Assembly (NCBI GenBank): GCA_036569045.1 | Contig: DATCRI010000077.1 | Coordinates: 24,916-88,915, forward strand | Reading direction: 5' to 3' | DNA: 64,000 nucleotides | From: Chthoniobacterales bacterium | GTDB taxonomy: Bacteria; Verrucomicrobiota; Verrucomicrobiia; Chthoniobacterales; JAATET01 | Part shown: piece after piece, positions 30,823 through 40,470 of the stretch | Layout: every line of letters starts with the position of its first letter | Numbering within the stretch: position 1 is the stretch's first letter | Notes under the pieces: generated by a model | Seen by the model: the letters and a program-made list of their open reading frames with translations, nothing else | The model's database searches: none | What the model was told of the DNA's origin: nothing | Translations under genes and position numbers: made by a program

Positions 30823-31176
30823 ATGCTCAAGTTCTACGCCTACGCGAAGTGCGACACCTGCCGAAAGGCGCTGAAGTTTCTGCGGTCAACCGAGATCGCC
30901 TTTGAGGAAATCGCCATTCGCGAGACGCCGCCCACGAAGCCCGAGTTCCGCGCCATGCTCGCCGCGCACGACGGCCAACTTCGCAAGCTCTTCAACACCT
31001 CCGGCGGCGACTACAAGGCCCTGGGCTTGTCCGCAAAACTTCCCGGCCTCGATGTCGAGGAAGCTCTCGACCTGCTCGCCGGGAACGGGAACCTCGTGAA
31101 ACGTCCGTTTGCCCTCAGCGACGACGTTCACCTCGTCGGATTCGACGAGGCGCGCTGGCGCGCGGCGCTGGCGTGA
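30823..31176 (+). CDS. ArsC/Spx/YffB-family thioredoxin-fold protein
   Basis: 117 aa. MLKFYAYAKCDTCRKA... and ...LVKRPF are typical of the family. Confidence 0.8.
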   Translation: MLKFYAYAKCDTCRKALKFLRSTEIAFEEIAIRETPPTKPEFRAMLAAHDGQLRKLFNTSGGDYKALGLSAKLPGLDVEEALDLLAGNGNLVKRPFALSDDVHLVGFDEARWRAALA

Positions 31177-32036
31177 TCGAGCGCGGGCTTTTTCTTCTCA
31201 AGGCCTCCCGCCCGGGCCTGTGGTTTCAGACGCTCTGGCTTTACACGCTTCCCCTCGCGACCTCGCATCGCGTGGGCGACGCCGCCTTCTGGCTCGGCTT
31301 CGCCTTCGTCCTGCTCCCGCTCAACCTCCTCGTCTACGGCTGGAACGATCTGGTCGATCGCGAGACCGACGCGATCAATCCCCGGAAGGATAGCTATCTT
31401 TTCGGTGCGCGCGGCACGCCGGCGCAACTCGCGACTCTGCCGCTCGCCATCGCGGCCATCAACGCCCCGTTCTTCCTCGTCTTCGTGATCCTGCGAGGCG
31501 GCATCATGGCCGCCATCCTCGCCGGCATGGTGCTCACGGTTGCGCTCTACAATCTCCCGCGGCACGGATTGCGCGGCCGTCCTCCGCTCGAGCTGCTCAA
31601 CCAGTTCGGCTACCTGCTCATTCTCCCGTTCGCGATCGTTCTGAACGATGTTCCCCCGCTTCCCTGGCAATCCGTCGCCTACCTCGCGCTATTCTGCACC
31701 CACGCCCATCTCATGGGCGAGATCATGGACGTCACTCCCGATCGTGAGGCTGGCCGCCGCACCACCGCGACCGTTCTCGGCATCATCCCGGTCAAACTCA
31801 TCTGCCTGGTCCTCGTTCTCGCGGAGGCGTTCCTCCTGTGGATCGTCTTTCGTGATCACGTCCTCGGCACCTTCCTCCTGCTCGGCGCGGGCTGGCTCGT
31901 CTTCGATCTGTTCGCCTTCCGCGATCGCTCGTATTCCCAAAGCCAGTTCCTGCTCTTCGGCGCGGGACTCAACCTCTCCGGCTTTGCGAGCATGGCGTGG
32001 GTCTGGGCCACCGGCACCCTCACCCGTCTGCCTTGA
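31173..32036 (+). CDS. UbiA-family prenyltransferase
   Basis: Polytopic membrane protein. First Asp-rich motif WNDLVDRETDAINPRK, second MDVTPDREAGRRT. The GTG start overlaps the upstream stop (GTGA). Confidence 0.8.
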   Translation: MIERGLFLLKASRPGLWFQTLWLYTLPLATSHRVGDAAFWLGFAFVLLPLNLLVYGWNDLVDRETDAINPRKDSYLFGARGTPAQLATLPLAIAAINAPFFLVFVILRGGIMAAILAGMVLTVALYNLPRHGLRGRPPLELLNQFGYLLILPFAIVLNDVPPLPWQSVAYLALFCTHAHLMGEIMDVTPDREAGRRTTATVLGIIPVKLICLVLVLAEAFLLWIVFRDHVLGTFLLLGAGWLVFDLFAFRDRSYSQSQFLLFGAGLNLSGFASMAWVWATGTLTRLP

Positions 32037-32099: not shown

Positions 32100-32948
32100 A
32101 TGCTCATCGACACCCACGCGCACCTTGACTACCCCGACTTTGCGGACGATCTCGACGGCGTGATCGCCCGGGCTCGCGAGGCCGGCGTCACCCGCATCAT
32201 CACCATCGGCACCGGCGTCGAGAGCAGCCGTCGCGCCGTCGCGCTGGCCGAGCGTTTCGACAATATCTTCGCCGTCGTGGGTCTCCATCCCACGAACGTC
32301 CTCGACGAGCCCGGAGACTTCCTTCCCGCGCTGCGCGAACTCGCCGCCCACCCGAAAGTTGCCGCCATTGGCGAGACCGGCCTCGATTACCACCGCCTCC
32401 CGAGCGAATCCCTCACGACCTCTCCCGCCATCGCCGCGATGCAGGCCGAGGTTCCCGAAGACGCGCAGGCCGCCGTGATGGACGGCGCCTACAAGGCCGC
32501 CCAGGCCGACGCCTTTCGCGCCCAGCTCGACCTCGCCGCGGAACTCGGCCTGAACGTCGTGATCCACCAGCGTAGCGCGTGGGACGACACGATCGAGCTC
32601 CTCCGCCCCTACACCGGCCGCCTGCGCGGCGTCTTCCATTGCTTCGGAAATCTGCCCGAGCAGGCCGCGGAGATCGCCGCCATGGGGCATCTCGTCTCCT
32701 TCACCGGCATTATCACATTCAAGAATGCCGCCCTCGTGCGCGAGGTCGCCGCCGCCGCGCCGGCCGATGGCTACATGGTCGAGACCGACTGCCCGTATCT
32801 CGCGCCCGTCCCGCACCGCGGCTCGCGCTGCGAACCGGCGCACACCCGGCTCGTCGCCGAAAAAGTCGCCGAGGTCCGCGGCATCTCGCTCGAGGAACTT
32901 GCCACCGTCACCACCCGCACGGCCGAGGCATTTTTCCGTCTTCGCTAA
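32100..32948 (+). CDS. TatD-family metal-dependent hydrolase
   Basis: [37 protein letters not shown]. Confidence 0.9.
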
Positions 32949-33000
32949 ACCCGCGACAGAACTGCTCGCCGCCTCGCAAATTTTCGGCCAGCATCCGCTC

Positions 33001-33744
33001 ATGAAGCTGCTCGGCATCGACATTGGAGGCACCGGCATCAAAGGCGCGCCGGTGGACGTGGAAACCGGCACCCTCCTCGCAGAACGCTTCCGAATTCCCA
33101 CGCCGCAGCCCTCGCTGCCAAACGCCGTCGCCGACGTCGTCGGCCAGATCGCCGCGCATTTCGATTACCAAGGCCCGACCGGCGTCACCTTCCCCGCCAT
33201 CGTCAAGAAAGGCGTCATTTTCTCGGCCGCGAACGTCGATAAATCCTGGATCGGCACCAACGCAAACGAACTTTTTTCCTCGCACGTGGGCGGTCCGGCG
33301 GAAGTCGTGAACGACGCCGATGCCGCAGGCATTGCGGAGATGCGCTTCGGCGCCGGGCGCGATCGCGGGGGCGTCGTCATCATGCTCACGCTCGGCACCG
33401 GCATCGGCTCTGCCATTTTCCTCGACGGCAAACTCCTGCCGAACTCGGAATTTGGTCACCTCAAGATGCGCGGCAAGGACGCCGAGAAACGCTGCTCGGA
33501 AAAAGTGCGCGAGGACAAGAAGCTCACGTGGAAAGCCTGGTCGAAGCACTTCAGCCAGTATCTCAACGAGCTCGAGCTCCTCTTCTCGCCCGACCTTTTC
33601 ATCATCGGCGGCGGCGCAAGCAAGAAGGCCTCGAAATTTCTGCCCTTCCTCACGACGAAGACCGAGGTGCTCATCGTCCCGGCGCAGATGCAGAACGAAG
33701 CCGGCATCATCGGCGCTGCCTATCTCGCCCGGCACCTCGTCTGA
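33001..33744 (+). CDS. ppgK: ROK-family polyphosphate glucokinase
   Basis: [40 protein letters not shown]. The ~247 aa length is typical of PPGK. Confidence 0.8.
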
Positions 33745-33756
33745 TTTTGCGCGACC

Positions 33757-34248
33757 ATGCCGACGTTTGACATCGTCTCCGAAGTGGACCGCATGGAGGT
33801 GAAGAACGCCCTCGACCACGCCACGAAGGAACTCTCGAACCGCTTCGACTTCAAGGGCGTGAAGGCGACGATCGAACTCGATCCCAAGAGCGGCTCGATC
33901 AAGCTCACGACCGACGACGGCGAGCACATGAAGCCGCTGCGCACGATCGTCATGGAGAAGCTCGCCAAGCGCGGCGTCGACCTGCGCAACGTCGAGGCCA
34001 AGGATGCCGACATCTCGCCGCTCGGCCATTCTCGCCAGGAACTCGCCATCAAGCAGGGCCTCGACGGCGACAAGGCCAGGACGATCACCCAGGCCATCAA
34101 GGCCCAGGGCTGGAAGGTGCAGGCGTCTTTGCAGGATCGAAAAATCCGCGTGACCGGCGCCAAACGCGACGACCTCCAGAAGGTGATCGGGTTTCTTCGC
34201 AGCGGCGACTACGGCGTCGCGCTGGCGTTCGAAAACTTCCGCGACTGA
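33757..34248 (+). CDS. yajQ: YajQ-family nucleotide-binding protein
   Basis: MPTFDIVSEVDRMEVKNALDHATKELSNRFDFKG is the canonical YajQ N-terminus. Confidence 0.9.
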   Translation: MPTFDIVSEVDRMEVKNALDHATKELSNRFDFKGVKATIELDPKSGSIKLTTDDGEHMKPLRTIVMEKLAKRGVDLRNVEAKDADISPLGHSRQELAIKQGLDGDKARTITQAIKAQGWKVQASLQDRKIRVTGAKRDDLQKVIGFLRSGDYGVALAFENFRD

Positions 34249-34919
34249 TCGACGGCCGCCCGCCGCACGAACCCGATTGCGCCCGTGGCGACACACGCCA
34301 GCGCGAGGATCTGATAGCCGGTGAGCCCGCCAAACGCGCGCGGCGTGTCGCGGACAAATTCGTGCAGGAAGCGAAACGTTCCGTAGGCGATGAGGTAGAG
34401 GTGAAAATGCTGGCCTGGCAAAATCCCCCGTCGTCGCATTCCGAAAAAAATCCCGGCCGCGAGAAGATTGAAGCCAATTTCCATCGGCACCGCCGGCCAG
34501 CGCAGAATGCTGGCGCGATCCGGCAGCGCACAGACCCCATTCCACGGCGCCCCCAGACAACAGCCGGCGCGCAAACAGCCAATGCGCCCGAGCGCAATGC
34601 CGAGAGGGACCACCGTGGCAAACCAATCGCCAGTCGGCGCCTGGTAGCCGAGCGCGCGCTTGAGAATCTCCACGGTGAAGTAGCCGCCGAGCAGCCCCCC
34701 CAGAATGGTTTTGCCGGTGACGAGGGCGAGCCAGAACTGCGACGCGCCGAGCATTTGCCAGCCTTCCGCAAAGAACCAGCCGAGCTTCGCACCGGCGAGG
34801 GCTCCGAACAACGCACCGAGGTAAAGCAGGAAGAGCCGATGATCGCGACGCGCCAGGCGAAACCAGAACCAGCCGGAGAGAGAGATCGCGGCAAGCAGAG
34901 CCACGGAATACGCGTTCAC
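34209..34919 (-). CDS. prolipoprotein diacylglyceryl transferase family protein (short, GCC-variant)
   Basis: Polytopic. Contains GKTILGGLLGGY, LGRIGCLRAGCCLG, HLYLIAYGTFRFLHEF. GTG 34919 chosen because it overlaps the upstream TGA (GTGA) and the longer N-terminus is Arg/His-rich. Confidence 0.75.
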   Translation of the reverse strand: MNAYSVALLAAISLSGWFWFRLARRDHRLFLLYLGALFGALAGAKLGWFFAEGWQMLGASQFWLALVTGKTILGGLLGGYFTVEILKRALGYQAPTGDWFATVVPLGIALGRIGCLRAGCCLGAPWNGVCALPDRASILRWPAVPMEIGFNLLAAGIFFGMRRRGILPGQHFHLYLIAYGTFRFLHEFVRDTPRAFGGLTGYQILALACVATGAIGFVRRAAVDQSRKFSNASATP

Positions 34920-36283
34920 GGCGCGCAGCAGGTGCCGGGGAAGCCCGAGTAGTAGCGGCAGAAGGAGTCGAGTTTGCCATCCTCGCGGATGACGTGCGTG
35001 CAGCAGCGATCGATGCGGTCCTGATCCCACGTAAAGGCGTCCATGAACGGCTTCACGAACAGGCGGAAGGCATTGGACTCATCGAGCTCGAACTGGCGCA
35101 GCAAATCTCCCAGCGGCTCGTTCTCACAGCCGCAGCGCGTGAGGTCCTCGAGCGAATAGCGCACCTTGTCGCGAAGAAAATCCTGCACGGCGTGAAAATC
35201 CACGAACTCGCTCACCGAGCGCACTTCGCCCTCGAGCCGGAGGAGATAGCCGATCGTGGCGCAATTGGGATCGCCGCACGGCAGCGGCGTGAAGTCCGAG
35301 GGGCCGAGCTTTCCGCCGGAGTGCTCGATGAGCGACAGGATCACGTCCGCCGTATTGATCGGCTCGTGCGTGGCGGCCTCGATCACGGAACGGCGGCCGC
35401 TCGTGAAGAACGGTTGGTAGCTGACGCCGCGCACGTGCGGATAGCGCAGGCCGAATTCCGCGGTCGCCCAAAGGTTGCCAAGGTTGGCGCGCGTGACCGT
35501 CATGGCCAGCGTGACCGGGAGCCCGATCGCCTCGCAGCGTTCCAGCGCCCGCTCCCGCAAGGCCCGGAGATCCGCACCGCGCAATTCCCGCTGGCCGTCG
35601 GCAAGCGTGCCATCGAACTGAAGATAGACCTGGATGTGCTTCCTCGCGGCGGCTTCGGCCATGCCGGCGAGAAACTCGTCGTCACGCGCGAGGCGCACGC
35701 CATTCGTATTCACCAGCACATAGCGAATACCGGGATGCGCCTGCGCCCAGGCGAGAAGTTCGAGGAATTGCGGATGGAGCGTGGGCTCGCCACCGGAAAG
35801 CTGAAGAATGTCGATCTCGCCTTTCCGGGCGATCACCCCCTCGATGCGCGCCTTGATCTTCTCGAGGGGAGCGGCCTTCACGGCACTCTCGTGCGGCGAG
35901 TCCGCATAGCACACGGGGCAGGCGAGATTGCAGGACTCGACAATTTCGATGAGCGCGAGACAGGTGGCGAGCTTCTCGAACGGCCCCTCGCCGCGCCCGG
36001 AGGCATTGCGGCCGAGCGTGCCGGGATTGCCGTCATCGGAGGCGCAGCACGCGGAGCCGGGCGAGCAGCACGAGTTTTCGGGATCGCCCTGCGCAAGCCA
36101 GTAAAAACGGGCGTCGGTGGCGATGCGAGTTTCCGTCACGCCGTGCTCATCGCATCTGCGGCGCATGAAAACGGCACCGTCACGGCGAACGACGACCGCC
36201 GGGCAATCCGCGAGGCATACCGGGCAGCGGCCCCGGGTGCGCTTGAGTTCGGTCAGAACCGGAATGGGGATCGGAGCGCTCAT
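34916..36283 (-). CDS. radical SAM enzyme with N-terminal zinc-ribbon and extra Cys clusters (MJ0619/Tes-like architecture)
   Basis: 455 aa from MSAPIPIPVL. Contains CPVC...CDEHG, NSCCSPGSACCAS, the radical SAM triad CNLACPVC, SGGEPTLHP, and a Cys-rich C-terminus (CGC, DRCCTHV, SFC, GTCC). Confidence 0.85.
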   Translation of the reverse strand: MSAPIPIPVLTELKRTRGRCPVCLADCPAVVVRRDGAVFMRRRCDEHGVTETRIATDARFYWLAQGDPENSCCSPGSACCASDDGNPGTLGRNASGRGEGPFEKLATCLALIEIVESCNLACPVCYADSPHESAVKAAPLEKIKARIEGVIARKGEIDILQLSGGEPTLHPQFLELLAWAQAHPGIRYVLVNTNGVRLARDDEFLAGMAEAAARKHIQVYLQFDGTLADGQRELRGADLRALRERALERCEAIGLPVTLAMTVTRANLGNLWATAEFGLRYPHVRGVSYQPFFTSGRRSVIEAATHEPINTADVILSLIEHSGGKLGPSDFTPLPCGDPNCATIGYLLRLEGEVRSVSEFVDFHAVQDFLRDKVRYSLEDLTRCGCENEPLGDLLRQFELDESNAFRLFVKPFMDAFTWDQDRIDRCCTHVIREDGKLDSFCRYYSGFPGTCCAP

Positions 36284-36567
36284 CCGTGAACGGCGAGGAC
36301 GAACGTGCATCCCCCCACTCCGACCACGAGGTGCACGAGCAACATCCCGAAGGCCATCGCGATGGCAATCATCACGCGGTTCAGGGGATGGACGGCGAGA
36401 ACCATGGCGACCGCGAAGGCCAGGCCGAGCAGGAGCGCGACATACATCACGAGCGCCACTCCGATTCCGTCGCCGTTCGACCAGATGACCACCGGAATCG
36501 CCAGCAGCGGGAGGAAGAAGAGCGCCAGGAGGCGGAGCAGCAGAGGCCGTCGGGAATTCTCGGGCAT
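36280..36567 (-). CDS. small three-helix membrane protein (hypothetical)
   Basis: 95 aa and strongly hydrophobic. Its TGA overlaps the ATG of the radical SAM gene (ATGA). Confidence 0.55.
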   Translation of the reverse strand: MPENSRRPLLLRLLALFFLPLLAIPVVIWSNGDGIGVALVMYVALLLGLAFAVAMVLAVHPLNRVMIAIAMAFGMLLVHLVVGVGGCTFVLAVHG

Positions 36568-36651
36568 GGGGAATGCCTAGCGAATCGCCGCCCAAACGAA
36601 AAGCTCCGCGCGTGGCCGCTCGCTCGAGCGCCAGCCGGCCGCGCGCGGGAA

Positions 36652-37302
36652 TCAGGCCGCGATCCGGTCGCCGGGCTCGGCGATCTCCCGAAAGCGGAAC
36701 CGCTCGTGGTATTTTCCGTCGTTGTGCTTGCGACAGCACTTGATGCAGGCGACGCGCGATTTCACGGCGCGCACGCGGGCCATCACGGTGAGGCACTCGG
36801 GGCACTGGTAGAAAAACCGGCGCGTCATCCGACGGGATTTGAAAGGGAGCTCGTGGCAGCGCTTTTCGTCGGGAATTCCGAGATCGGCGCAGGCCTGCTG
36901 CCACTCCGGTCCGTGTGCCGTGATCCGGCGACGACCGGCCCGTGCATGGGCGACGAGGTGCGCCAGTTCGTGGCGCAGGGTGCGTTGCACTTCCCCGGCG
37001 GAAATTTCGATGAGCTTCGGATTCAGGATCACTCGTTTCGTGCGGAAACAGGCGACGCCGGCCGTGGTGCGCATGCGGGGATTCCAGAGCACGGAGAGTT
37101 CCTTCGCGAGGCGGTGGCAGCCGACGCGTTTCACGAGCATGCGGGCGACTTCTTCGAGAATGGGGTCGCGGCGCAGAGCGGTCTCCGTGCGGGCACGCTG
37201 GCGCGGCGCAATGGCCGCCGCGGTAAGCCGGGGCAGCAGATTGATCTGCCGCAGGAGGTCGCGGCCGAAATTGAAGGCAAGCTGGCGGGGTGCGGGACTC
37301 AT
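36652..37302 (-). CDS. SprT-like zinc metalloprotease domain protein
   Basis: HELAHLVAH (HExxH) followed by a C-terminal zinc ribbon CPEC...CIKCC. ATGA overlap with the desulfurase gene. Confidence 0.75.
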   Translation of the reverse strand: MSPAPRQLAFNFGRDLLRQINLLPRLTAAAIAPRQRARTETALRRDPILEEVARMLVKRVGCHRLAKELSVLWNPRMRTTAGVACFRTKRVILNPKLIEISAGEVQRTLRHELAHLVAHARAGRRRITAHGPEWQQACADLGIPDEKRCHELPFKSRRMTRRFFYQCPECLTVMARVRAVKSRVACIKCCRKHNDGKYHERFRFREIAEPGDRIAA

Positions 37303-38456
37303 GCTTCTTGCGTGGGTTGGGTCAGTTTTTGTCGTTCGAGCACTCGGGCGAGCGCGGTCAGCGCCGCTTCAATTTCAGCGCCGGTCGTCGATTTGCCCAA
37401 TGAAAATCTTACCGTAGCCTGAGCGATCTTTTCCGGCACCCCCATGGCCAGCAAAACGTGCGACGGCTGGACGGAACCGACCATGCAGGCGGACCCGCTG
37501 GAAACGCTCACCCCCTCCATGTCCAGCCCGATGAGCAGCGTCTCCCCGTCGGCCCCCGGAAAGCTGACGCTCAACGTGTTAGCCAAAGTTTGCTCGGGAT
37601 CGCCGTTGCGGACGGCGGTCGGAAATTCGGTGCGAATTCCCTCCCAAAGCCAGTCGCGCAACTCCCGCTGGCGATCCTGCTCGACGTCGACGCTGGCGAC
37701 CGCGGCCTCGGCGGCGGCGGCCAGACCGGCGATGGCGGCCACGTTTTCCGTCCCGGGACGGCGCTGGTTTTCGTGGGCGCCGCCGTGGTGAAGGGTCGTC
37801 AGCGGCAATCCGGCCCGTAAAAACAGCGCGCCCACACCCTTCGGCCCATAAAATTTGTGGGCCGCCAGGGAAATGGCGGCGACGCCCATCTCGTAAGGGC
37901 GGACGGTTTCCTTGCCGAAGGACTGCACCATGTCGCTGTGGAAGAGCACGTTGCGTTCCCGGCAGATGGCGGAAAGCTCCGCAATTGGCTGCAGGGTGCC
38001 CGTCTCGTTGTTGGCAGACATCACGGAGGCGAGCGTGGTGTCCGGGCGAATGGTGGCCGCAAACTCCTCGGGATCGACCCGGCCGGCGCGATCGACGGGC
38101 AGGATCGTGAGTTCGAAGCCGTGGCGCTGCCGAAGAAACTCCATCGCATGAAGGACGGCGTGGTGCTCGGTCGCCACGGTGATGAGATGCCGACCGACGC
38201 CTTCATGGGCCAGCGCGAGCCCGATAAGGGCAAGATTCACGGATTCCGTGCCGCCGCTGGTAAAAATGATCTCGTGCGGACGTCCCCCGACGAGGGCGGC
38301 GAGCCGGTCGCGGGCATCATCGATCGCCGCTCGAGCGCGCCGGCCCGGGGCATGGATGCTCGACGGATTCCCGAACTCTTCGCGCAGAAACGGCAGCATC
38401 GCCTCGAGGGCCTCGGGGCCCAGCGGCGTGGACGCATTGTAATCTAGATAACCCAT
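37299..38456 (-). CDS. cysteine desulfurase (NifS/IscS class)
   Basis: 385 aa from MGYLDYNASTP. PLP-Lys region AHKFYGPKG and active-site loop SSGSAC. Confidence 0.9.
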   Translation of the reverse strand: MGYLDYNASTPLGPEALEAMLPFLREEFGNPSSIHAPGRRARAAIDDARDRLAALVGGRPHEIIFTSGGTESVNLALIGLALAHEGVGRHLITVATEHHAVLHAMEFLRQRHGFELTILPVDRAGRVDPEEFAATIRPDTTLASVMSANNETGTLQPIAELSAICRERNVLFHSDMVQSFGKETVRPYEMGVAAISLAAHKFYGPKGVGALFLRAGLPLTTLHHGGAHENQRRPGTENVAAIAGLAAAAEAAVASVDVEQDRQRELRDWLWEGIRTEFPTAVRNGDPEQTLANTLSVSFPGADGETLLIGLDMEGVSVSSGSACMVGSVQPSHVLLAMGVPEKIAQATVRFSLGKSTTGAEIEAALTALARVLERQKLTQPTQEA

Positions 38457-39355
38457 TCCAATGCGGCGTCGGCCCCCGGGGAATTGCGCTTCGGAAGAAT
38501 CTTCAGCTGGGTTTCTTCGTAAAAGACGAGCGAGCGGGCCGGCACGCTGTGGGTGAGAAAGACGTTTGCGCCGATGGTGCTGTCCGTGCCGATGACGGTA
38601 TCGGCGCCCATGATCGTCGCCCCGGCATACACCGTAACCTCGTCGTGCAGGGTCGGGTGACGGCGCTTGCCCTTCAGGGCCTGACCGCCGGCAAGGGAAC
38701 GCCCGATCAAGGCGACGCCCTGGTAAAGCTTCACGCGATTGCCGATCACGCTCGTTTCGCCGACCACTACGCCCGTGCCGTGATCGATGAAGAAATGCGT
38801 GCCGATTTGCGCGCCGGGGTGGATGTCGATGCCGGTGCGCGAGTGCGCCCATTCGGTCATCATGCGCGGCAGCAGCGGCACCCCGGCCTTGTAGAGCCGA
38901 TGGGCAGACCGCTGGATGGCCACCGCCTCGAGGCCGGGATACGAAAGCACGATCTCCTCGAGGGACAGTGCGGCAGGATCTCCCTCGAAGGCAGCCTCGA
39001 TATCGGTGCGTAAAAGCTCGCGAATGGCGGGCAGCGCCTCGAGAAACCCGGTGAGGATCTCCTGGGCTCGGGATTGCGGGCACTCCGGCTCGGTCGTGCG
39101 CAGACTGCGGCAAATCTGGTCCTCCATGCGGTCGGCAAGGCTCGCGATGCGCGTCCCCGTCAATTCTGCGAGAAAATCGGGGTGGATGGGCTCCTCGTCG
39201 TGGAATCCGGGAAAGAGCAGCTGCAGAAGATCCTCGCAGATCGAGGCAATGGCGCGGGTCGAGGGCAGGTTGAGGCCGTCGGTGTTGTTCATCCCGCCGA
39301 CAGTCTCGTAGGACGCGAGGAGATCCCGCGCGACCCGTTTCAGAGTGCTTTCCAT
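38444..39355 (-). CDS. cysE: serine O-acetyltransferase (long form)
   Basis: 303 aa from MESTLKRV. Left-handed beta-helix hexapeptide repeats (IDHGTGVVVGETSVIGNRVKLYQGVAL). Confidence 0.85.
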   Translation of the reverse strand: MESTLKRVARDLLASYETVGGMNNTDGLNLPSTRAIASICEDLLQLLFPGFHDEEPIHPDFLAELTGTRIASLADRMEDQICRSLRTTEPECPQSRAQEILTGFLEALPAIRELLRTDIEAAFEGDPAALSLEEIVLSYPGLEAVAIQRSAHRLYKAGVPLLPRMMTEWAHSRTGIDIHPGAQIGTHFFIDHGTGVVVGETSVIGNRVKLYQGVALIGRSLAGGQALKGKRRHPTLHDEVTVYAGATIMGADTVIGTDSTIGANVFLTHSVPARSLVFYEETQLKILPKRNSPGADAALEWVI

Positions 39356-39396
39356 TGCGGGCCGAAAATAGGCGCCAGGCGCCGGGGTGTCGAGGA

Positions 39397-40470
39397 TCAC
39401 GCTCCAGGCACGGCCCCGTCGCCGATGTGGCAACGGGTGGCGCGAGTCTCGACGCCGGTGCGCTGGCGGTAAGTGGAAATGATTTTTTCCTCCACGCGAG
39501 TCGCCGCCGCAGAATCCACCGCCGCCACGATCGCGCCGCCAAATCCACCGCCGGTGAGTCGCGCACCATGCACGCCAGGCTGGAGCTGAGCGAGCGCCAC
39601 GAGGAGATCGAGCTCCGGCGTGCTGTTCTCGAAATTCACCCGCGAGCTCTCGTGCGACGCAGCCATCAATCGCCCGAAAGCCGCGATATCTCCCGATCGG
39701 AGATGCTCCACCGCCGCGAAAACGCGCTCGTTCTCGCCGATCACATGGGCCGCGCGCCGGCCGACGACATCCGGGAGGTTTGCCGCCGCAAGCTGCGCGG
39801 ACGTGGCGTCGCGCAGCGCCGGCACGCCCAGGAGCCGGGCCGCCTCGAAGCATTCGGCGCGACGTTCGTCATATTCTCCGCCGGTGAGCGCATGCGGCAC
39901 TCCCGATTGCACGACGAGCAGTTCGATGCCTTCGGGAAAGGGAATGCGCTCCACGGTTTCCGCCCGGCAATCCAGATAAATGGCGTGCTGCTTCTGGCCG
40001 AACACCGAAGAAACCTGGTCGAGGAGACCGCAGCCGACGCCGACGAATTCATTCTCCGCGCGCCGCCCGAGCTTCGCGATCTCCAGCGGAGTCATCTCGA
40101 GTTTGAAAAGATCCTTCAGGAAGACCGCGGTCGCGATTTCCATCGCCGCGGAGCTGGAAAGGCCCGTGCCCACCGGAAGCGTCGCCGAGAATTCCGCCTT
40201 GAAGCCGCCGATCTCGACGCCGCTGGCGCGCAGAGTCGCGACGATGCCGAGCGGATAATCGCTCCAGGCGCCCGCACGCTTCAGCGGCTTGCCCGCCGGA
40301 ATCTTCACCTCCGGAAACCCCGCGCTCGCCAGGGAGATCGCGCCATCCTCCGTGCGCTCGCCCTTCACCGTCACGCCCAGATCGAGCGCCGCGGAGAGGA
40401 CGACGCCTTCATTGTAATCCGTGTGATTTCCGAGCAGTTCGACTCGGCCGGGAGCAAACGCAGTAAACAT
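39397..40470 (-). CDS. galK: galactokinase
   Basis: GRVELLGNHTDYNEG signature and GHMP motif PVGTGLSSSAA. Confidence 0.9.
   Translation of the reverse strand: MFTAFAPGRVELLGNHTDYNEGVVLSAALDLGVTVKGERTEDGAISLASAGFPEVKIPAGKPLKRAGAWSDYPLGIVATLRASGVEIGGFKAEFSATLPVGTGLSSSAAMEIATAVFLKDLFKLEMTPLEIAKLGRRAENEFVGVGCGLLDQVSSVFGQKQHAIYLDCRAETVERIPFPEGIELLVVQSGVPHALTGGEYDERRAECFEAARLLGVPALRDATSAQLAAANLPDVVGRRAAHVIGENERVFAAVEHLRSGDIAAFGRLMAASHESSRVNFENSTPELDLLVALAQLQPGVHGARLTGGGFGGAIVAAVDSAAATRVEEKIISTYRQRTGVETRATRCHIGDGAVPGA

Follow-up and report, generated by a model that had tools for sequence, protein, structure and literature searches.

A 64-kb stretch of Chthoniobacterales DNA, referred to here as the window, contains three minus-strand genes that are chained by overlapping ATGA and GTGA sequences and encode, in order, a small membrane protein, a radical SAM enzyme and a divergent member of the Lgt family (Table 1). 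On the plus strand the overlaps read TCAT at 36280-36283, between the small-protein and radical SAM genes, and TCAC at 34916-34919, between the radical SAM and Lgt-like genes, and all three genes are translationally coupled. The chain of genes with 4-nt overlaps described in the original prediction is thereby borne out by ORF reading. For the Lgt-like gene, a GTG start is a plausible assignment, since this codon is the sole ATG, GTG or TTG between a far-upstream GTG at 35030 and the point at which homology begins (Y4, equivalent to E. coli Y26).

Table 1. Positions in the window of the three genes and of the motifs that they encode
Feature	Position	Strand	Basis
Small membrane protein, 95 aa, 3 predicted helices; FxGC-tail family, putative acceptor substrate	36280..36567	-	ORF read
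V-G-G-C, aa 84-87, lipobox-like, end of last helix; followed by 8-aa tail TFVLAVHG	36307..36318	-	family logo
Radical SAM enzyme, 455 aa; GDGT-MAS/Tes/TrsS superfamily; unnamed, mainly verrucomicrobial subfamily	34916..36283	-	Pfam, NCBIfam, PDB, Foldseek, family alignment
Rubredoxin-like / zinc-ribbon motif CX2CX20CX2H, aa 20-47 (CPVC...CDEH)	36143..36226	-	PF23545; C20, C23, C44, H47 invariant in family
Cys-rich insert CCSPGSACC, aa 72-80	36044..36070	-	C73 and C79 nearly invariant in family alignment
Radical SAM cluster motif CNLACPVC (CX3CX2C), aa 118-125	35909..35932	-	invariant in family
C-terminal Cys-rich domain LPCGDPNC...CGC...KPFMD...CCTHV...SFC, presumed auxiliary-cluster domain	34949..35284	-	conservation, GDGT-MAS alignment
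Divergent Lgt-family membrane transferase, 236 aa, GTG start, 7 helices, minimal periplasmic head, no arm-1	34209..34919	-	PF01790, TIGR00544, AF2, 5AZB
Variant Lgt signature motif GRIGCLRAGCCLG, aa 111-123; R112 = E. coli R143; C115, C120, C121 replace N146, E151, L152	34551..34589	-	73-member alignment
YGTFRFLHEFVR: Y179, R183, E187, R190 = E. coli Y235, R239, E243, R246	34350..34385	-	73-member alignment

The radical SAM enzyme and its Lgt-like partner

The central enzyme is a member of the radical SAM superfamily, as indicated by its CNLACPVC motif, a match to Radical_SAM PF04055 (E 3.8e-16; 60 bits, cut-off 29.5) and a GGE motif, SGGEPT, that is invariant in the family alignment. Pfam also detects Zn_ribbon_HMPTM PF23545 (E 7.5e-15; 54.7 bits, cut-off 27), and this rubredoxin-like domain, together with full-length fold similarity, places the protein in the GDGT-MAS/Tes/TrsS superfamily of HMPTM-type zinc-ribbon radical SAM enzymes. 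Specifically, GDGT-MAS/Tes (MJ0619; 7TOL/7TOM) is the top PDB match by sequence (7TOL, E 3.7e-36) and also by fold (Foldseek E 4e-26, TM 0.66/0.61, full length over 491 columns), the latter with a query model of only moderate confidence (pLDDT 62.9). The two enzymes share the rubredoxin-like motif with identical spacing (C9X2C12X20C33X2H36 in GDGT-MAS; PMC9433317), a Cys-rich insert, the CX3CX2C core and a C-terminal KPFMD...CC...FC segment that aligns with the GDGT-MAS C-terminal domain, and the MJ0619/Tes-type affiliation proposed from the sequence at the outset thus stands. Seven cysteines of the window enzyme (C336, C341, C384, C386, C427, C428 and C442) are invariant in the family alignment. 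The insert CCSPGSACC, which is the Cys-dense segment already singled out, appears by position rather than by residue-by-residue alignment to correspond to the N-terminal auxiliary [4Fe-4S] domain of GDGT-MAS, where C73, C77, C80 and a His coordinate the [Fe4S4]N cluster (PMC9433317). All other motifs quoted in the original prediction (CPVC...CDEH, CNLACPVC, SGGEPTLHP, CGC, CCTHV and SFC) are likewise present, but the terminal GTCC is kept in the closest relatives only.

Affiliation does not extend to orthology. The Tes equivalog model NF045702 scores 157.6 bits against a cut-off of 450 and aligns only with the N-terminal two-thirds (positions 2-314 of 486), and Tes orthology was rejected. The TrsS model NF045646, although the best-scoring in NCBIfam and aligned end to end (positions 2-430 of 441), reaches 225.9 bits, less than half of its cut-off of 490, and relatives at 31-54% identity likewise fall below this value. 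TrsS is a radical SAM (seleno)protein of the same superfamily and, like the window enzyme, of uncharacterised function, but the window enzyme contains no selenocysteine. Compared with GDGT-MAS, identity in the fold alignment is 23%, an invariant Lys occupies the position of the labile Met439 ligand, with an invariant Met three residues further on, and the host is a bacterium with ester lipids.

The downstream partner belongs to the Lgt family, with 74.3 bits for Pfam LGT PF01790 (cut-off 24.9) and a 7-helix Lgt fold; for its AF2 model (pLDDT 88.7), the sole PDB fold match at E <= 0.001 is E. coli Lgt 5AZB (E 4.8e-6). Its identity to E. coli Lgt (5AZB/5AZC) is only about 25%, and it scores 33.8 bits against the cut-off of 118.9 of the canonical equivalog TIGR00544. 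When 73 family members are aligned with E. coli Lgt, the equivalents of Y26, R143, G154, Y235, R239, E243 and R246 are kept in 67-73 of them (R143 in 73/73), including the four residues, Y235, R239, E243 and R246, that belong to a buried hydrogen-bond network and phosphatidylglycerol-binding site in E. coli (PMC4728403). In contrast, N146, E151 and L152 are each replaced by Cys in all 73 members, H103 by L, T, V or I and H196 by W, arm-1 is absent and the head is shortened from about 47 to about 22 residues; H186, inside YGTFRFLHEFVR, and H173 just upstream are new, family-specific invariants. The variant motif quoted in the original prediction is GRIGCLRAGCCLG, and the assignment of the partner as a variant Lgt-family protein holds.

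Residues absolutely required in E. coli Lgt are Y26, H103, R143, N146, G154 and R239 (PMC13251419), of which the family keeps Y26, R143, G154 and R239 and has lost H103 and N146. Substitutions of the latter two also occur in certain distant Lgts that are functional (PMC13251419), such that Lgt-like activity is possible, but the protein could also be inactive or catalyse something else. Distant Lgts with Cys at N146 and E151 are known already, among them the partly functional enzyme of Leptospira (PMC13251419), and the motif by itself is therefore no proof of changed chemistry. Among Lgts with N146C, that of Leptospira interrogans, which also has a second Cys nearby, retains reduced but real activity (PMC13251419), and MSMEG_5408 of M. 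smegmatis is presumed to have low activity (PMC12462473); unlike the present family, with its three invariant cysteines and minimal head, neither has a reported radical SAM link or dedicated mini-protein substrates.

Hypervariable mini-proteins in a conserved gene set

The small membrane protein of the window has no Pfam or NCBIfam match and is the only FxGC-type small ORF in the 64 kb. It is a member of a hypervariable family of which 132 candidates were found, in 77 of 84 genome loci with 1-4 detected per locus, where homologous or analogous small ORFs adjoin the radical SAM gene; in the other 7 genome loci the motif-filter search found no FxGC ORF. The filter was passed by 10.8% of nearby same-strand ORFs versus 0.2-0.3% of control ORFs, and candidate density was 0.53 per kb versus 0.007-0.016 per kb in controls, a 30- to 70-fold enrichment beside the gene pair. 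Since the filter demands [GAS]C near the C-terminus, invariance of the Cys within the 132-member set arises partly by construction, but the preference for G, the F at position -3, the enrichment over controls and an unfiltered cluster are not built in this way. In that cluster, assembled by BLAST with no motif filter, the C-terminal Cys is present in 19/19 members.

When 52 diverse mini-proteins are aligned, G and C are the sole invariant residues and columns average 23% identity, compared with 63% and 55% for the enzymes. Start sites of the small ORFs are uncertain, and the conserved part is the C-terminal end alone: a basic loop, a helix of about 22 residues, F-A-G-C and a tail of 4-12 residues. 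In the family logo, G occupies position -1 in 115/129 members, F position -3 in 64 and A position -2 in 45, with R/K at -23; the uncharged stretch before the Cys has a median of 22 residues, and the 10 residues preceding the last helix have a net charge of +1.8 on average. Tails frequently terminate in F-[HKR], and MDFK, NFH and GRIAP are among the endings that recur. The original prediction of a tiny membrane protein in the operon was thus correct as to the gene, but a role as a fixed accessory subunit does not fit a multi-copy, hypervariable family in which only the C-terminal F-A-G-C is conserved.

Lipoprotein signals consist of an n-region, an h-region and a lipobox, [LVI][ASTVI][GAS]C (PMC12462473), and judged by its sequence the C-terminal end of the mini-proteins imitates such a signal. 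As with the acceptors of canonical Lgt, a lipobox-like x-x-G-C follows a basic loop and a hydrophobic helix. However, the mini-proteins do not conform to a Sec/SPII lipoprotein precursor: these elements lie at the C-terminus, the putative acceptor motif follows a full transmembrane helix (median 22 residues) and only 4-12 residues come after the Cys, with no folded mature protein.

The linkage between the two enzymes is real and conserved, as had been suspected from the window. An Lgt-like gene lies downstream of the radical SAM gene in 127/133 informative loci (95%), nearly all of them verrucomicrobial, with the same-strand arrangement in 73/78 informative genome loci and 54/55 informative metagenome loci; it is absent nearby in 6/133. 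This synteny spans radical SAM proteins that are 48-88% identical to that of the window. In the reverse direction, three independently picked Lgt-like proteins all have a radical SAM gene directly upstream, and one small protein retrieved by profile search is encoded immediately after a radical SAM gene. When neighbouring ORFs were clustered without bias, no further conserved enzyme emerged, and tblastn with E. coli Lgt over the window and all examined loci matched Lgt-like copies only. Radical SAM relatives occur at 484 pattern-confirmed places among 185,579 species genomes, and the best 80 of the 484 are nearly all labelled Verrucomicrobiota; a 50%-identity representative library contributes 4,671 matches at E <= 0.001. 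The gene set is conserved in many Verrucomicrobia and undescribed so far: in line with the view that no known system combines these genes, no description was found in the literature or in family libraries.

Candidate functions of the gene set

The available data are compatible with a model in which the three genes form a dedicated protein-lipidation module, a reading that we favour tentatively and to which we would give slightly less than even weight. Mini-proteins (one here, up to 4 detected per locus elsewhere) would insert with the last helix N-in/C-out, thereby placing the C-terminal F/V-A/G-G-C at the periplasmic leaflet in the manner of a lipoprotein signal peptide with its lipobox. The Lgt paralogue, which keeps the phospholipid-binding arginines, would use a phospholipid as donor and load the Cys thiol with a diacylglyceryl or a related lipid. 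It has lost most of the head that in E. coli helps determine protein-substrate specificity, and a minimal Lgt-like head would fit acceptors with a "mature" part of only 4-12 residues. From their sequences, the mini-proteins look like the gene set's own lipidation targets, that is, dedicated acceptor substrates of the Lgt paralogue, although their topology, the acceptor role of the Cys and the identity of the lipid donor are inferred.

The part played by the radical SAM enzyme, and the order of steps, are more speculative. Radical SAM enzymes must work in the cytoplasm, and direct action on a Cys predicted to be periplasmic would be topologically awkward. Only by analogy with Tes, which joins two tails of saturated lipids through a C-C bond at their terminal carbons, the enzyme may instead couple or otherwise modify the ends of lipid tails in mid-bilayer from the cytoplasmic face, after or before the Lgt step, possibly yielding an anchor that is macrocyclised or spans the membrane. 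In GDGT-MAS, a hydrophobic tunnel accommodates the lipid tails, and the enzyme was even co-crystallised with bacterial phosphatidic acid (PMC9433317). In its boldest form, which we consider possible but rather doubtful, the model would describe an unrecognised lipidation in which the Lgt paralogue loads a glycerolipid onto a C-terminal "inverted" lipobox and the Tes-type enzyme forges a tail-end C-C, or C-S, bond, such that proteins end up covalently fastened to a lipid that is macrocyclic or spans the membrane.

Several paralogous, hypervariable small ORFs that share a short conserved core and adjoin a radical SAM gene are also the classic RiPP layout. The mini-proteins might accordingly be precursor peptides on which the radical SAM enzyme acts directly, for instance by cross-linking residues in or beside the G-C motif and tail through a thioether or C-C bond, while the Lgt-like protein lipidates, anchors or exports the product or confers immunity to it, and cleavage after lipidation could free a lipopeptide of 5-13 residues. 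The recurrent tail endings would suit such a product, and the fold matches that follow GDGT-MAS are RiPP maturases (SkfB, SuiB and CteB-type), but at much lower scores: their TM values are 0.34-0.38 or less and cover the shared radical SAM core only, whereas GDGT-MAS matches over the full length. Furthermore, no SPASM or RRE domain was detected in the enzyme by Pfam, SPASM-type NCBIfam models match its radical SAM core alone (25-50 bits), no protease or exporter is conserved among neighbouring ORFs, and the conserved motif closes a transmembrane helix and is predicted to lie on the periplasmic side. Taken together, we regard RiPP-like maturation as unlikely.

A module for bulk membrane lipids, with a Tes/Mss-like synthase of membrane-spanning lipids, an Lgt homologue that handles diacylglycerol lipids and mini-proteins as adaptors or regulators, would draw on the homology to GDGT-MAS/Tes, on the proposal, made without a test, that bacterial Tes homologues produce membrane-spanning lipids (PMC8941075) and on the binding of phosphatidylglycerol by the Lgt family (PMC4728403). 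By description, Mss of Thermotoga and the proposed brGDGT Tes homologues offer precedents as radical SAM enzymes for which a coupling of bacterial lipid tails has been proposed or demonstrated (PMC13159169, PMC8941075, PMC13459092), but they act on bulk lipids and have no described Lgt or mini-protein partners; nor has the obligate link to an Lgt paralogue and FxGC mini-proteins been reported for Tes. An adaptor would be expected to be single-copy and conserved throughout, which the mini-proteins are not, and known Lgt chemistry needs a protein thiol acceptor. In addition, clustering of neighbouring ORFs linked no glycerolipid-synthesis genes, and the enzyme lies far under the Tes cut-off. We know of no report of membrane-spanning lipids from cultured Verrucomicrobia, which also counts against this function, and we judge it quite improbable. 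The multi-copy, hypervariable FxGC family favours lipidation of dedicated protein substrates over a remodelling of bulk membrane lipids. The lipid or lipoprotein-anchor module of the original prediction keeps its Tes-type enzyme, its variant Lgt and their linkage, but its bulk-lipid part gains only partial support.

Mere coincidence of an ordinary lgt having lineage-typical N146C/E151C with an unrelated radical SAM gene and ordinary small membrane proteins seems very improbable: sources do annotate the protein as Lgt, and distant bona fide Lgts carry N146C and E151C/D, with the Leptospira N146C enzyme partly complementing E. coli (PMC13251419), but the low TIGR00544 score, the roughly 25% identity to E. 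coli Lgt (39%, E 4e-54, for the canonical Lgt of the verrucomicrobium Methylacidiphilum; PMC10260701), the mere 484 pattern-confirmed matches for a near-universal enzyme, the synteny across diverged radical SAM proteins and the enrichment of lipobox-like small ORFs all argue against it.

The hypothesis of a dedicated lipidation module is directly testable, since the gene set is carried by the cultured Chthoniobacter flavus Ellin428 and Haloferula sp. BvORR071. If true, it would provide a first concrete, testable function for the large orphan bacterial branch of the Tes/GDGT-MAS superfamily, discussed until now only as possible brGDGT or membrane-spanning-lipid synthases. It would widen the reach of Lgt-type chemistry from the N-terminal signal peptides of lipoproteins to motifs at the C-terminus of polytopic mini-proteins and, in its boldest form, would make the bacterial gene set the first example in which Tes-type tail chemistry acts on a lipid bound to a protein. 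In that case, metagenomic counts of bacterial "Tes homologues" should not automatically be equated with tetraether makers, which bears on the lipid proxies used in palaeoclimate research.

A conserved gene pair and its surroundings

The locus, in a Chthoniobacterales (Verrucomicrobiota) MAG, comprises three minus-strand genes, for a small membrane protein, a radical SAM protein resembling the archaeal tetraether lipid synthase Tes, and an Lgt-like protein (see table). The position, strand and four-base overlaps that the original prediction assigned to this trio were all read directly, the plus strand giving TCAT at 36280-36283 (ATGA in the coding sense) and TCAC at 34916-34919 (GTGA), and every motif it had quoted was found in the sequences; only the closest relatives share the GTCC at the end of the radical SAM protein. 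A promoter and terminator scan returned nothing beyond shuffle expectation, and a horizontal-transfer island was rejected, as the region carries no GC or compositional anomaly.

The Lgt-like gene converges with yajQ in a 40-nt 3' overlap, and the identical overlap is present in L001, an 89%-identical relative. Directly upstream of the trio and on the same strand lies an operon of CysE-like, IscS-like (Aminotran_5) and SprT-like (HExxH) genes, the latter two overlapping by 4 nt, which is syntenic in L001. It was placed outside the system because a Na/Pi cotransporter parts it from the trio in L001, and its genes are missing from other loci. A UbiA-like prenyltransferase was likewise rejected as a component, being on the opposite strand and not conserved near the system. 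Three very long ORFs of 378-690 aa run antisense to the real genes or in another frame; such ORFs are common artefacts of high GC and not genes.

Coordinates of the features discussed, in the window unless a relative's locus (L number) is named
Feature	Position	Strand	Basis
Small membrane protein, 95 aa	36567..36280	-	ORF reading
Radical SAM protein, 455 aa	36283..34916	-	ORF reading
Lgt-like protein, 236 aa, GTG start	34919..34209	-	ORF reading
yajQ	33757..34248	+	
Lgt-like/yajQ 3' overlap	34209-34248		
CysE-like, IscS-like, SprT-like operon	36652-39400	-	
UbiA-like prenyltransferase	31173-32036		
Artefactual long ORF	32908-34980	-	
Artefactual long ORF	34994-36289	+	
Artefactual long ORF	36286-37422	+	
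~135-aa four-helix protein (also at 18 other loci)	L008:6764-7276, L043:7399-7782, L073:6559-6996		
Expanded cluster	L003:2180-9406		
Transposase-interrupted locus	L086:2495-6717		
Radical SAM gene lacking a downstream Lgt-like gene	L007:5128-6384		
Divergent metagenomic locus	L147:1510-3929		
Small protein with weak NF058595 match	L053:9455-9760		

A scan of 185,579 species genomes yielded 484 confirmed relatives of the radical SAM protein, and the best 80 of these 484, inspected for taxon, are nearly all labelled Verrucomicrobiota (Chthoniobacterales, Pedosphaerales/Limisphaerales and Verrucomicrobiales); Chthoniobacter flavus Ellin428 and Haloferula sp. BvORR071 are cultured carriers among the relatives. 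In 73 of 84 genome loci an Lgt-like gene follows on the same strand, and six of the eleven exceptions are cut by a contig end. An independent metagenome scan, whose generic search pattern returned mostly the same family and did not reach TrsS or Tes contexts, added 80 loci with radical SAM proteins 48-88% identical to that of the window; where at least 900 nt follow downstream, 54 of 55 have the Lgt-like gene. The gene linkage proposed in the original prediction is conserved, with the pair present in 127 of 133 informative loci (95%) across genomes and metagenomes. In the reverse direction, all three Lgt-like proteins picked from the Lgt search have a radical SAM gene directly upstream, which at one locus an IS element interrupts. 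When all neighbouring ORFs were clustered without bias, no further conserved enzyme emerged, and no LspA, Lnt, protease or exporter; the sole conserved neighbours are small same-strand membrane proteins.

Individual loci depart from this arrangement. In one MAG (L086), a DDE_Tnp_1 transposase insertion cuts the radical SAM protein to 348 aa with the Lgt-like gene still present, which looks like a natural inactivation of the system. Five genome loci (L007, L023, L049, L066 and L071) lack an Lgt-like gene over at least the 5.7 kb that follow the radical SAM gene; small ORFs of the FxGC type described below are present in four of the five, and upstream in L007 stands another, different radical SAM gene (…ITNICNADCGF…). 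On the metagenome contig L147 (GC 0.36), the radical SAM protein shares 54% identity with that of the window; the Lgt-like gene, at only 32% identity, precedes the radical SAM gene instead of following it, and a search for FxGC ORFs detected none. The locus may represent a divergent branch of the system beyond the high-GC Verrucomicrobia. Several loci (L011, L033, L038, L042, L045, L057, L060 and L073), their radical SAM proteins 63-65% identical to the window's, come from MAGs labelled Binatia, Acidoferrum, Sulfotelmatobacter, Oligoflexia, Saccharimonadales or Bifidobacteriaceae, which could reflect binning contamination or lateral spread.

Other loci are extended. At 21 of the 84, the window not among them, a ~135-aa four-helix membrane protein is encoded just upstream of the radical SAM gene (LLALDAAVLFLLG...GLWGC...DPLRHxVWVQVGIARGALE...LYPR); it lacks an FxGC tail and matches no Pfam or NCBIfam family. 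The 61%-identical relative L003 has an expanded cluster that includes a 157-aa membrane protein, a B12-binding radical SAM protein (PF02310/PF04055/DUF4070) and five small proteins in tandem (an xxGC tail in four, an N-terminal zinc ribbon in two), followed by the Tes-like radical SAM gene, its Lgt-like partner and an MFS transporter.

A Tes-like radical SAM enzyme and a divergent Lgt

In Pfam, the radical SAM protein matches an HMPTM-type zinc ribbon (PF23545) and Radical_SAM. Among NCBIfam models, profile classification placed it closest to TrsS, at 226 bits for a cut-off of 490, and to Tes, at 158 bits for a cut-off of 450, and because both scores fall short, it belongs to neither equivalog; relatives at 31-54% identity behave likewise. 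The Tes/MJ0619-type assignment of the original prediction holds in sequence and fold, and the enzyme is no Tes orthologue. Specifically, the closest solved structure by sequence is the Tes enzyme GDGT-MAS (PDB 7TOL, E 3.7e-36), and the predicted fold, from an AlphaFold model of only moderate confidence (15 homologues, pLDDT 62.9, pTM 0.66), matches it over its full length (E 4e-26, TM 0.66/0.61), with SkfB second at TM 0.38. The N-terminal CX2CX20CX2H has spacing identical to the GDGT-MAS rubredoxin site, the Cys-rich insert probably occupies the place of its N-terminal [4Fe-4S] domain, and the KPFMD...CC...FC tail aligns with its C-terminal cluster domain. GDGT-MAS holds lipid tails in a hydrophobic tunnel and makes C-C bonds via a cluster-sulfur intermediate (PMC9433317). 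The wider family is large: a 90%-identity collection holds over 4,900 clusters at E <= 1e-10, and a 50%-identity library 4,671 representatives at E <= 0.001, of which 303 reach E <= 1e-30.

The partner proved to be a variant Lgt-family protein, as had been proposed, scoring 74 bits against Pfam LGT and 33.8 against the canonical equivalog TIGR00544 (cut-off 118.9); the sole significant PDB match of its AlphaFold model (pLDDT 88.7) is E. coli Lgt (5AZB, E 4.8e-6). E. coli Lgt absolutely requires Y26, H103, R143, N146, G154 and R239 (PMC13251419). When 73 locus copies were aligned to it, Y26, D129, R143, G154, E202, Y235, R239, E243 and R246 were found to be kept, all 73 copies carry N146C, E151C, L152C and H196W, and L, T, V or I replaces H103; H173 and H186 are family-specific invariants. 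The protein lacks arm-1, and its periplasmic head (E. coli E151-P197) has about half the length; the head domain and arm-2 contribute to protein-substrate specificity in Lgt (PMC13251419). The Cys signature is unusual and has precedent: distant Lgts have C or C/D at N146/E151, and a Leptospira N146C Lgt partially complements E. coli; H103 is poorly conserved (PMC13251419). With this signature the protein may still be an active transferase.

Small proteins with a C-terminal FxGC motif

The conserved small neighbours form a family of 132 ORFs, one to four per locus in 77 of 84 loci, adjacent to the radical SAM gene, either in front of it or in the space that separates it from the Lgt-like gene. 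They were collected with a filter for a hydrophobic C-terminus followed by x-x-[GAS]-C and a short tail, which 10.8% of nearby same-strand ORFs passed, vs 0.2-0.3% of control ORFs (from the opposite strand, from other parts of the loci or from within the radical SAM gene); their density is 0.53 per kb near the radical SAM gene vs 0.007-0.016 per kb in controls. Although the filter accepted G, A or S at -1, G stands there in 115 of 129; position -3 is F in 64, and position -2 is A in 45. An R/K peak at -23 precedes an uncharged run with a median of 22 residues before the Cys (IQR 22-25), and the 10 residues ahead of that run have a mean net charge of +1.8. The tail after the Cys counts 4-12 residues, F-[HKR] being a frequent ending, and the C-terminal Cys is shared by all 19 members of a BLAST cluster for which no motif filter was applied. 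The 95-aa protein of the window, ending …HLVVGVGGC-TFVLAVHG, is a typical member and the only such ORF in the 64 kb.

Among 52 diverse members aligned, no residues other than the G and C are invariant; columns average 23% identity, vs 63% and 55% for the two enzymes. About 41 of the 132 have an N-terminal CxxC...CxxC zinc ribbon, a count that over-long ORF calls may inflate, start sites being uncertain. Pfam and NCBIfam searches matched no family, and a profile search with the C-terminal alignment (A3) against 5.8 billion proteins gave only four matches because the family is too short and divergent. Recurrent matches of 7-10 bits, mostly to the N-terminal part, link small proteins of L053, L026, L052, L058, L074 and L081 to NF058595, "lipo-invert putative C-terminal anchoring domain"; with a cut-off of 37, membership was rejected and the matches are a lead only. 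As the name of this NCBIfam model indicates, inverted lipid anchors are an idea that curators have already had.

A candidate protein-lipidation system

The small proteins share with lipoprotein signal peptides the basic loop, hydrophobic N-in/C-out helix and x-x-G-C layout, the lipobox consensus being [LVI][ASTVI][GAS]C (PMC12462473), but differ in carrying this layout at the C-terminal end of a mini-protein. The positive-inside rule would put the Cys at the periplasmic leaflet, on the active-site side of Lgt. Being multi-copy and hypervariable, with only a short motif conserved beside a modifying enzyme, the small proteins behave like substrates and not subunits; of the tiny membrane protein originally proposed as part of the module, the gene is real and the role is recast accordingly.

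Building on the observed architecture, homologies, conservation and motif statistics, the leading if tentative model is that the Lgt paralogue would S-lipidate the mini-proteins on the FxGC Cys; we infer the topology, the Cys as acceptor and the identity of the lipid donor. Acceptors with almost no mature domain are well matched to a head-less Lgt. The Tes-like enzyme, by analogy with GDGT-MAS, might then work on the lipid tails, either on the protein-bound lipid or earlier on the donor lipid, both its reaction and the order of steps being speculative.

Direct, RiPP-like modification of the peptides themselves is an unlikely alternative to Cys lipidation. Somewhat less probable still is the original view of bulk-lipid remodelling with the small proteins as accessories: the Tes-type enzyme, Lgt variant and linkage behind it all hold, but the substrate-like behaviour of the small proteins argues against it, and it ranks under protein lipidation. 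In the window and the collected locus DNA, tblastn with E. coli Lgt detected no canonical lgt, only the Lgt-like paralogue, which is ~25% identical to E. coli Lgt; the canonical Lgt of Methylacidiphilum shares 39% identity with the E. coli enzyme (PMC10260701). That a housekeeping lgt stands beside the radical SAM gene by coincidence is highly improbable, and the remaining probability falls to some other explanation.

Bacterial Tes homologues, 456 of them counted, have been proposed as brGDGT synthases without a test (PMC8941075), and a 2026 review on lipid radical SAM enzymes mentions neither Lgt nor lipoproteins. Literature searches on Lgt paralogues with radical SAM enzymes, C-terminal or inverted lipoboxes and TrsS, the last listed only as a selenoprotein family without function, turned up no account of the system, as the original prediction had held. 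Taken together, the system is real, widespread in Verrucomicrobiota and undescribed, and the reading that fits best is a novel form of Lgt-type protein lipidation that would be coupled to a Tes-type radical SAM enzyme and have its own C-terminal-lipobox mini-proteins.
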